A stretch of 59,085 nt of DNA, counting the filler, from Basidiobolus ranarum (taxonomy: Eukaryota), in the NCBI GenBank assembly GCA_040143965.1. It is 4 parts of 4 records of this genome, joined end to end, with 100 filler letters (N's around TTAATTAATTAA, not from the genome) between each part and the next. Parts side by side here need not be neighbours in the genome. Positions count along the whole stretch, not along the records: positions 14,843 to 29,565 come from JASJQH010007290.1; 3 more parts are not named here. One strand, 5' to 3'. The notes beneath the pieces are model-generated. The model was not told the DNA's origin and did not search any database. It saw only the letters and a list, made by a program, of their open reading frames with translations. Shown here piece after piece: positions 15,378 to 18,300 of the stretch (its first letter is position 1; every line of letters starts with the position of its first letter). The translations under genes and the position numbers were made by a program.

Positions 15378-18300
15378 ATGTCGACCTCACAGCCTCCTAA
15401 CATTCCGAACTCGGAGAGTCTTGGAATGCTTGTCGACCCAGCTTATGAACGAACTTTACAAAATCGTGTAAAAGAATTACTTGCTTGGCGACATGATAGG
15501 TAGGTTGTTGAATCTTAGTGTATGATGATTCCGATTTCTCATCGTTTTTATTGGAATTAGTTTTCCTGGTAGTCAAGCAGTATACTTCGAAACCTCCCAC
15601 TTAGAATATCTTAAAAGTGAAGATTACTTTGTGTGTGAACAGAATGGGGGAATTCGTTGCCTTCTATTTAGTACAATTACTCCTAAGGGTCCTGCTACAT
15701 TTGTGGTAAGTACCGGAGGACAGTTTTGCTTGCCATCCCCCTTCTTATTAATTCGTACTTTAACTTCTAGATCGATAGCAAGAATAGCTTCAGATATTTA
15801 TCGGCAGGCTTACCAGTTAGAGATCATCCAACTTTTCAGCATGAGACATTGCTAGATGGGGAGTTATTGGTTGAAAAAACTGGCGAACAAGTATGTCATT
15901 TGAGTTTTTTTTGCCAGAATTGCATGTATATCTAATACTTTTTATGCTTATGTAGAAGCTATATCGATACCTCATATGCGATTTAATAGTTCTCAATAAG
16001 GTTTTGGTAGCACATAAATCTTTCAACAACAGACTTGGAGTAAGTTTAATACGAATACTTTTATTAGTGTGCACATGCTTACTTGTATCGAATAGATGCT
16101 TAATCAAGAAGTAATTCTTCCTTTCAACCGAATGGTGAATACCGATCAAACCAAACGCCCGCCTTTCAGGTATGGATATTATCATCCCTCTAGTGGAATC
16201 TGAGTTAATTCTACACGCAAACGCTGATATTTACTTTGATTAGGTTGGAACTCAAGAAAATGGAACGATCATATGGACTTAAAGTAGTTCTCGAACACAA
16301 AAACAATGGGTTATTGTTTACACCCGTTCGTTCTCCTTATACTTGTGGACTATCCCGAAAACTGTAAGTATATCACTGAAGCGACTCTATCAGCATAACT
16401 TAGAACTAACCGAACCATCTCAAAAGGCTCAAATGGAAAAGTCCCTCATCATATACTGCTGACCTCAAAATTAGAGTTACATATAACATCGATCGAAAAC
16501 CAATTTATTCAGTAATGGCAGCCTGCAATTTGAACCATAAATTCTTGGATCACCTGCAACTTGAACCTAGCCTTTTCACTGAGTACGCTATCTTCTTTTT
16601 TCACTCATGCTTGTATCTGCTTTTTAACAATATTTGTTAGATGGCGACCTTCGCCTCCTGATGGACGTATTGCTGAGTTCAGGTATGGTTTGATCATTGC
16701 AAGTAATTCAAAGTTGAACCTACTTACGAACATCTAATACTATAGGTGGGACTCACAGTGGCCTGTAACTATTTTCGAGAAAGGATACGCACCGAAAAAT
16801 CAAAAAGGTGGATGGAGGTAACATTTATTGATGAATATTTGCTTTAATTTGATTGTTAATTGTATAATTCCCCTCAGATTTGTTCGCTTTCGGGATGACA
16901 AAGATACTGCAAATGAGGAAGAATTTGCCAAATTAGTTAGAGATGGGATGCCCCATGCTGTTAGCAGAGAAGTGGTATGTATAGCAATCTTCAATTTTCA
17001 CTTGAAAGTCTCTAATATGTGTTCATAAGCTTGAGAGTCAAGTGGAGGAAATTCGTAGCAACTGGAAAATCCGTGAGAAAACTGGCGTACCATCTATGCA
17101 ACCACCTAGCGGACAGAGTTCAGGCCCCCACAGTCAACAATCGCTACATGGTTCACATGAACGACGTTCGTCAACAGATACTTCGGGTAACCTTATAAGA
17201 GAATCACCACTACCCTCTCCTCGCTATGATCAAGGATTCAATCAACGAAGAGACTCTCATGACTCATCAAGGAAAGGCTCTCAAGACTCAATTACTCGAA
17301 AGAGTTCCCAAGATGAAGCTGTTAAAAAACATTCACCACCAGCGTTGGATTCTGGTCCTCCAAATAATGGAGCGACATCTAATCTTTCGAAATCTCCCCT
17401 AGAGCACTCCAAATCTGAGGATTCTCCCACCAAGCCCACTTTTCCTCATACTACAGAGAGCTCTCAGATTATTGTTGAATCTAAGAACACAGATTTAAGC
17501 GACACTCATTCGGATCAGCCTACTGTTGATCGTGTTTCTAAGAAAGACGATGTACCTCAGAATATTTCTCCAAAACCAGTACATAAAGTGCCGGCACTTA
17601 CTTTGGAAGATCCCCAAAAAGGTCAAAACCAAGGAGAATCGCACCCAACTGGAGTCGGGTCTACGATTCAAGATATAGATACAAGCTCTATAAAACAACC
17701 GAACAAAGACGATATTACCAAGGACGGTAGTGCTACAAAGGATGTTGAAGCTACAAAACTGACATCGAATTCTGCGCAGGATTGGTCCAACGTAAGTTTA
17801 CTTGGTTCAAATCACAATTTTTTATGTTCTGATTTTAATTCTATATTAAAGAAATCGTCACCTAACGCTGAGATGGCCCAAAGTCTTGATCAAAGAGAAG
17901 AGAGAACACAACATCAAAATCCAGGTAATGGCCCGGCAAATATAAAGCCCCTTAATAGTGAAGAAATAGTATCTGCTCTACATGAGATTCGATCGAATGA
18001 GAAACATGTGGAAAAGATTATAACAGTTGCTCATGATGTTGACCAGAAAGTTCAATCAAACGAAAAGTAAGTCAATAGATCATTTGGTCAAAATAATTCC
18101 AGTACTTATTAGATTTTTTATATTCATCGATATTTTATAGACCGAAACCCCTTCCAGCCACAGTCCATACTGAAGTGACTGAGAATACTTCGTCTGTGTC
18201 AGCAGATCAGCACGATCCAAGTACTATTCCTAAATCTGAAGTTCAGCACGCACCGGTCACGATGGATACAACTGTTTCACAGTCCAAGGGTCTCCCTGAA

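Follow-up and report, generated by a model that had tools for sequence, protein, structure and literature searches.

The window considered here, meaning the whole 59,085-nucleotide stretch of Basidiobolus ranarum DNA that was analysed (assembly GCA_040143965.1), carries on its forward strand a gene for a long protein whose amino-terminal module resembles the fungal messenger RNA (mRNA) capping guanylyltransferase Ceg1, with residues of the catalytic motifs replaced. The splice model was drawn from GT-AG boundaries and extended downstream; positions count along the window.

15378-20363, plus strand: whole coding region, 14 exons, 1390 codons and a stop; the spliced translation is the database protein P0001
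15378-15499, 15561-15705, 15771-15890, 15956-16039, 16096-16169, 16244-16363, 16427-16582, plus strand: exons 1 to 7
16641-16682, 16746-16817, 16878-16974, 17030-17791, 17852-18066, 18141-18437, 18497-20363, plus strand: exons 8 to 14
20361-20363, plus strand: stop codon

The reading frame is open throughout, all 13 introns are of the GT-AG type, and the spliced product is identical letter for letter to a database protein of 1390 amino acids (P0001; source name 'hypothetical protein K7432_007918 [Basidiobolus ranarum]'). An earlier account of this DNA, hereafter the sequence-only reading, had described frame and splice sites as intact, and this holds; it had also ended the gene at 17070, far short of the real stop. 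The interval 15378-17070 is just the first quarter of the gene, and a tail of about 1000 amino acids had been overlooked. Judged from its sequence, the protein is laid out as a capping guanylyltransferase-like module of a nucleotidyltransferase (NTase) and an OB-fold domain (residues ~1-371), followed by a disordered tail of about 1000 amino acids. The idea that the tail is a fusion of two genes in the gene model was rejected, because the same domain-plus-tail architecture and a C-terminal motif, described below, recur across many species. The domains of the module are as follows.

15577-16439, plus strand, introns within: nucleotidyltransferase-like domain, residues 47-226 (PF01331, 115.8 bits, cutoff 29.6)
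16476-17032, plus strand, introns within: OB-fold (mRNA_cap_C-like) domain, residues 239-345 (PF03919, 37.7 bits, cutoff 26.5)

Both matches come from a scan of the whole protein, the kind of profile search that the sequence-only reading had suggested; single exons gave Pfam matches below threshold only (15.5-24.9 bits). An AlphaFold2 model of residues 1-363, made from a 100-row alignment, has a mean predicted local distance difference test score (pLDDT) of 93.5 and a predicted template modelling (TM) score (pTM) of 0.88. Foldseek searches with the model return as top matches 4pz6 (Pce1), 1p16 (Cgt1), 3kyh (Ceg1) and 3s24 (human guanylyltransferase), the best being Pce1 (4pz6_A, E 1.8e-32, TM 0.78), and a phmmer search of PDB sequences yields S. 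pombe Pce1 (4pz6_A, 9e-40), C. albicans Cgt1 (1p16_A, 2.7e-37) and S. cerevisiae Ceg1 (3kyh_C, 1.1e-30). On the evidence of the model, the capping guanylyltransferase fold is preserved in the module. The protein shares the NTase and OB fold of Ceg1, Pce1 and Cgt1 (4pz6, 1p16 and 3kyh; PF01331 and PF03919), is 28-30% identical to these structures and, like them, has motifs III, V and VI. Unlike them, it is without the motif I Lys, the motif IV Asp, the guanine-stacking Phe and the pocket Pro, and it carries a disordered tail of about 1000 amino acids with a conserved C-terminal motif. It is split by a branch with support of 100/95-98 from all canonical enzymes, the canonical Ceg1 of its own species included.

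The substitutions were placed by aligning homologues to a profile (246, later 373) and mapping the columns to Pce1 numbering, with the published contacts between Pce1 and guanosine monophosphate (GMP) as a guide (PMC4066402). In that report, Lys67 of Pce1 carries GMP in a lysyl-GMP linkage, F144 stacks on the guanine and P46 contacts the GMP ribose (PMC4066402). Homologues are referred to below as clade A, a name coined in this analysis for long-tailed Ceg1-like paralogues of early-diverging fungi, or as clade B, the canonical enzymes.

15640-15651 (CAG AAT GGG GGA), plus strand: motif I, Q68-N-G70-G71 in place of K-x-D-G, in CEQNGGIR; the Lys nucleophile and the Asp are gone
16305-16310 (AAT at 16305-16307), plus strand: motif IV, N203-G204 in place of D-G, in HKNNGLLF where canonical enzymes read DGLIF
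15977-15979 (TGC), plus strand: Cys137 for the guanine-stacking Phe of motif IIIa (Pce1 F144), by alignment column
15577-15579, plus strand: Ala47 for the pocket Pro (Pce1 P46), by alignment column
15777-15779, plus strand: Ser92 for an Arg invariant in canonical enzymes (Pce1 R94), by alignment column
15855-15863, plus strand: motif III, D118-G-E120, kept, by alignment
16431-16439, plus strand: motif V, K224-W-K226, kept, by alignment
16816-16902, plus strand, spanning the intron 16818-16877: motif VI, RFVRFRDDK, residues 312-320, kept

The codons of motif I, whose Q-N-G-G sits within YFVCEQNGGIRCLLF, and the AAT of motif IV are exactly those given by the sequence-only reading. How unusual are the residues they encode? 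The two motif I columns hold Lys in 273/273 and Asp in 273/273 canonical rows (the K67 column is Lys in 198/198 of a smaller canonical set). The motif IV column (Pce1 D219) is Asp in 203/203 canonical rows, or 275/276 in the larger set, and is Asn in both Basidiobolus species, B. ranarum and B. meristosporus; mutational literature has established this Asp as essential for capping activity. All three catalytic substitutions named at the outset are real. Two of them are shared with B. meristosporus, and the Asp-to-Gly change of motif I (Pce1 D69, here G70) is specific to B. ranarum, the B. meristosporus protein keeping the Asp and reading QNDG.

Motif IIIa had been listed among the intact motifs, and here the listing fails, as its Phe is Cys137. 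The F144 column is Phe in 200/200 canonical and 23/23 other clade A rows, and the P46 column is Pro in 196/196 canonical and 20/21 other clade A rows; the R94 column is Arg in 199/199 canonical rows. These positions read Cys, Ala and Ser, respectively, in both Basidiobolus species. Motifs III, V and VI are indeed intact (DGE, KWK and RFVRFRDDK), with D118, E120, K224, K226, R315, R317, D319 and K320 all in place. In Pce1 numbering, the residues kept are Q45, C65, E66, G70, R72, D124, G125, E126, K195, G220, K240, K242, R326, R328, D330 and K331. In an alignment of 203 canonical sequences, 38 columns reach an invariance of at least 98.5%; of these, 11 are changed in the B. ranarum protein and 10 in its B. 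meristosporus orthologue, and several clade A relatives change none of the 38. On these alignments, the residue changes in the B. ranarum protein exceed chance.

The B. meristosporus orthologue (P0002, 1363 amino acids) has the same Gln, Asn, Cys and Ala at the K67, D219, F144 and P46 positions, so that the absence of the motif I Lys and the motif IV Asp is conserved in a second species. A canonical KxDG capping gene, which the sequence-only reading had proposed to look for in the same genome, is present in the species: P0042, found through protein databases, has 370 amino acids, is 35% identical to the module and reads CEKSDGVR, SDGLIF, LKWKP and RFRDDK. It is not encoded in the window, where tblastn gave weak matches only, to the gene under study. 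Its counterpart in B. meristosporus is P0136, and the canonical Ceg1 proteins of the two species are 364-370 amino acids long. Between the two species, identity is 332/371 (89%) for the module, 454/1019 (45%) for the tail and 303/364 (83%) for canonical Ceg1, and the constraint on the module is judged from this protein identity, which is a proxy only and not a dN/dS value. In a quick IQ-TREE run of 73 rows, the tip branches of the Basidiobolus clade A pair measure 0.047 and 0.069, and those of the canonical Ceg1 proteins from these two species 0.11 and 0.14; the clade A pair sits on a long stem (0.65). We read this pattern as suggesting a burst of change and then strong constraint. The loss of catalytic residues, the separate canonical enzyme and the conservation of the module between species lend support to the pseudo-enzyme that had been proposed from the DNA.

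The nearest relatives of P0001 are long proteins (up to 1887 amino acids), not canonical Ceg1, and they come from Mucoromycota, Mortierellaceae, Glomeromycotina, Zoopagomycota, chytrids and Blastocladiella. The same species hold a canonical Ceg1 of about 380 amino acids beside the clade A protein, as in the following pairs (clade A protein first).

Absidia glauca P0012 and P0214; Halteromyces P0022 and P0160; Parasitella P0020 and P0203
Phycomyces P0015 and P0168; Podila horticola P0029 and P0200; Neoconidiobolus P0038 and P0144
Thoreauomyces P0254 and P0223; Hesseltinella P0248 and P0164; Tieghemiomyces P0276 and P0142

A simple identity rule left 91/246 rows unclear, and the clades were assigned by trees instead. 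In a careful IQ-TREE analysis (73 rows, LG+C20+F+G4 PMSF), 31 clade A rows, including the B. ranarum protein, group with ultrafast bootstrap (UFBoot) and Shimodaira-Hasegawa-like approximate likelihood ratio test (SH-aLRT) supports of 100/95, and 41 canonical rows group with 100/98. Quick IQ-TREE runs (58 and 73 rows) give the same split, and FastTree with 358 rows gives an 81-row clade A (support 0.90) with no known canonical protein inside. Thirty clade A representatives were looked up and 28 could be named; all 28 are from early-diverging fungi, with no Dikarya among them. Seventeen positions are specific to clade A (at least 85% in clade A and at most 40% in canonical rows), namely G84, P85, A86, F88, N143, R190, P209, V210, L222, I237, Y249, K260, D263, W275, P280, G309 and G310, and the B. 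ranarum protein carries the clade A residue at 17/17. Far from being peculiar to Basidiobolus, the gene belongs to an old family of paralogues spread across early-diverging fungi, a context that the sequence-only reading had missed. Chytrids, blastoclads and zygomycete lineages occur in both clades, and these trees therefore place the duplication before the split of those groups, unless gene transfer is invoked. Neither a second Ceg1-like lineage in fungi nor a capping guanylyltransferase pseudo-enzyme was found described in open-access papers and preprints, and the clade A lineage is apparently undescribed.

Is catalytic loss general in clade A? Halteromyces radiatus P0022, Zychaea mexicana P0030 and Ambispora gerdemannii P0024 belong to the same clade, have the 17 signature residues and share with the B. 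ranarum protein the long tail (in full-length models) and a C-terminal motif of the K-L-D-F-I-L-N type. They keep 38/38 canonical-invariant positions (37/37 in Ambispora) versus 27/38 in the B. ranarum protein, and by sequence they are probably active enzymes. Seven core residues (K67, D69, G70, D219, G220, K240 and K242) were scored in the 62 clade A rows in which motifs I and IV are both covered: 33/62 keep all seven and 29/62 lose at least one, compared with 269/272 canonical rows that keep all seven. The Lys is gone in 14 clade A rows (10 Arg, 3 Gln, 1 Leu), and its state on the careful tree needs at least five changes. The number of canonical-invariant columns changed is 11-12/38 in Podila, 12/37 in Cladochytrium and 6/38 in Absidia glauca, and 0 in Halteromyces, Zychaea and Ambispora. 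R72, D124 and E126 are near-invariant over the 81 clade A rows, degenerate ones too (64/64, 69/69 and 68/69).

Tieghemiomyces parasiticus P0276 (SEQADG) has lost core residues as the B. ranarum protein has, likewise with Gln for Lys, and core losses within clade A are seen also in Podila P0029 (EKVAG, GEGLIF) and Hesseltinella P0248. The degenerate members differ from the B. ranarum protein in their substitutions and lie on separate branches. Selection that keeps clade A, as read from these alignments, tolerates loss of the chemistry. Two amphibian chytrid pathogens, Batrachochytrium dendrobatidis (P0272; CERGRG, PSTGLLF) and B. salamandrivorans (P0275), have strongly degenerate clade A proteins, annotated as hypothetical, with the motifs CERG.G, PSTGL[LI]F and LLKWIF. 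Rhizopus azygosporus P0026 and R. microsporus P0036 read CERSDG, with Arg for the nucleophile Lys and the other core motifs intact; this is probably a minimal, recent inactivation.

The remainder of the B. ranarum protein is the tail, in which three features can be placed.

17033-20363, plus strand: low-complexity tail, ~residues 346/372-1390, 1019 amino acids, by composition
18394-18506, plus strand, spanning an intron: bipartite basic stretch KRKSLGVGNLDESQKHKK, residues 755-772, a pattern match only
20295-20321, plus strand: C-terminal motif KGKLDFIMN, residues 1369-1377, which aligns with Umbelopsis and Mucorales proteins

The tail is rich in Ser (14%), Pro (10.5%) and Gln (9%), and hydrophobic residues make up 18.6% of it versus 34.8% of the folded module; the whole-protein scan found no Pfam family in its roughly 1000 residues. 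The basic stretch looks like a nuclear localisation signal. KGKLDFIMN is followed by 13 further residues, which are conserved in B. meristosporus. A motif of the form K-[ASG]-K-L-D-F-I-[LM]-N (M-L-E-F-I-L-N in Ambispora) stands at or near the C-terminus of 15/26 clade A proteins inspected; it aligns in 8/8 long forms, with variants in further clade A members, and many of the 11 proteins with other endings are taken to be cut or truncated models. Several tail blocks are identical in the two Basidiobolus species, RESPLPSPR, SHDSSRKGSQDS, NNDNREALRRSMT and VPTRQENWQPMKDV, at P0001 residues 401-431, 1112-1143 and 1280-1319 (window about 17200-17290 and 19520-20140). These blocks are candidate linear motifs or phosphorylation sites.

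The gene is likely the B. ranarum member of clade A, coding for a catalytically dead Ceg1-like NTase and OB module joined to a very long, disordered tail with K-L-D-F-I-[LM]-N at its end. Such a protein would form no enzyme-GMP and cap no RNA, the canonical paralogue presumably doing the capping. The dead module would be kept as a binding module, and the tail, with its putative nuclear localisation signal and C-terminal motif, might be the effector or hub part. What might the module bind? The foremost candidate, put forward tentatively, is docking on the Ser5-phosphorylated carboxy-terminal domain (CTD) of RNA polymerase II (Pol II) or on the early elongation complex, as Ceg1 and Pce1 do; this could bring partners of the tail to early transcription, or set the protein in competition with the real capping enzyme. 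The positions that make up the CTD Ser5-P site of Pce1 are defined in the Pce1 report (PMC4066402). CTD docking is favoured because these positions (here K150, L156, G157, L185, M188, Y192, R353 and K357) carry the residues commonest in canonical fungal enzymes.

Another reading, rather unlikely and yet clearly ahead of those that follow, makes the protein a ligand sensor, the dead module binding a nucleotide, a cap or a 5' di- or triphosphate RNA end without catalysis and signalling or sequestering through the tail. A phosphate-bearing ligand stands as an option because motifs III (D-G-E), V (K-W-K) and VI (R-x-R-D-D-K) are kept, together with R73 and K186, and the near-invariance of R72, D124 and E126 even in degenerate clade A members points the same way. 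The retained cleft residues may, however, be structural, and by comparison with Pce1-GMP (PMC4066402) the guanosine site is largely dismantled, with Cys for the guanine-stacking Phe, Ala for the ribose-contact Pro and Ser for R94. Binding of guanosine triphosphate (GTP) by the module is doubtful, and guanine nucleotide binding as in Pce1 appears unlikely, because the stacking Phe and other pocket residues are replaced (F144C, P46A and R94S). That the protein is still an enzyme, working through another nucleophile or a non-covalent route or transferring a different nucleotide, is very unlikely. In its favour, the fold is preserved along with motifs III, V and VI, and relocated catalytic lysines occur in other enzyme families. 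Against this, the B. ranarum protein departs at five pocket positions from the residue that all 196-203 canonical rows carry, and at four of these the B. meristosporus protein departs as well; in the motif table, neither motif I nor motif IV was noticed to hold a Lys that is particular to Basidiobolus and might compensate, and a canonical enzyme is present for the job.

Loss of catalytic residues is also what a decaying or unexpressed pseudogene would display, an explanation made highly improbable by a 1390-codon frame open over 14 exons with 13 GT-AG introns, by a module 89% identical to that of the sister species versus 45% for the tail, and by the retention of 17/17 clade signature residues and of the conserved C-terminal motif. 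Nothing was found in favour of a sequencing, assembly or gene-model artefact, which is effectively refuted: the spliced product equals the database protein, an independent species shares Q68, N203, C137 and A47, and the domain-plus-tail architecture with its C-terminal motif recurs in many species. The sequence-only reading, too, had argued against sequencing error or random decay, and the shared residues and the 89% identity of the module bear it out.

Several points weigh against a dead module that docks on the CTD. The retention of motifs III, V and VI with R73 and K186 indicates continued constraint on the cleft, for which ligand binding accounts at least as well as a pure CTD scaffold does. 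Even among genuine capping enzymes the CTD site varies from fungus to fungus, to go by a section title of the Pce1 report (PMC4066402), and a match to consensus is therefore weak evidence. Since about half of clade A (33/62) keeps every core residue, the protein ancestral to the clade probably had enzymatic activity, and the common function of clade A may involve catalysis that was somehow replaced in Basidiobolus. The root of the tree, moreover, rests on a single outgroup row and so is not fixed.

For clade A as a whole, the proposal is that early-diverging fungi (chytrids, Blastocladiomycota, Zoopagomycota and Mucoromycota), not Dikarya, carry a second, undescribed lineage whose module brings a long disordered, motif-bearing tail to RNA 5' ends or to Pol II complexes in early elongation. 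The Basidiobolus protein would be a fully non-catalytic, strongly constrained example. A job other than capping chemistry is suggested because the state of the nucleophile changed at least five times. This wider proposal may be correct, its chances being put somewhat below even. A pseudo-enzyme derived from a capping-pathway enzyme has a parallel in vaccinia virus: D12, the small subunit of its capping enzyme, has a methyltransferase fold and no catalytic activity, and it supports the active subunit. D12 differs from the B. ranarum protein in its fold, in the capping step concerned, in being viral and in having a known partner.

The surroundings of the gene are unremarkable. Upstream lie exons of a PP2C-type phosphatase (~10184-11520, plus strand; PF00481 at 40.9 bits, PF13672 and PF07228 on the 11008-11520 frame) and of a Y-family DNA polymerase-like gene (impB/mucB/samB; ~12376-13361, plus strand; PF00817 at 31.7 bits on the 13032-13361 frame). 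Downstream and convergent is a 2-isopropylmalate/homocitrate synthase-like gene (20979-22957, minus strand; PF00682 at 137.5 bits, PF22617 and PF08502 LeuA_dimer), whose 3' end and the stop at 20363 are about 600 bases apart. All three are ordinary housekeeping genes, with no sign of a mobile element or of a cluster. Many homologues of both clades (P0014, P0026, P0029, P0042, P0253 and others) are named 'Dcp1p-Dcp2p decapping enzyme complex alpha subunit' in their source records. The name appears to be a mis-annotation passed on from record to record, given that the proteins so named match only capping-enzyme Pfam families.

To our knowledge, a fungal genome is usually credited with one triphosphatase and one guanylyltransferase for capping. 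Many fungi outside Dikarya have a second Ceg1-like lineage beside the canonical enzyme, among them Mucorales and Batrachochytrium, which are of medical and conservation interest. For annotators, the label 'mRNA capping enzyme' on a clade A protein is no guarantee of activity, and caution is called for. With its huge disordered tails and its repeated catalytic loss under constraint, clade A forms a natural series of active-looking and dead versions, in which non-capping roles of the capping fold, e.g. CTD reading, 5'-end binding and scaffolding, can be tested.

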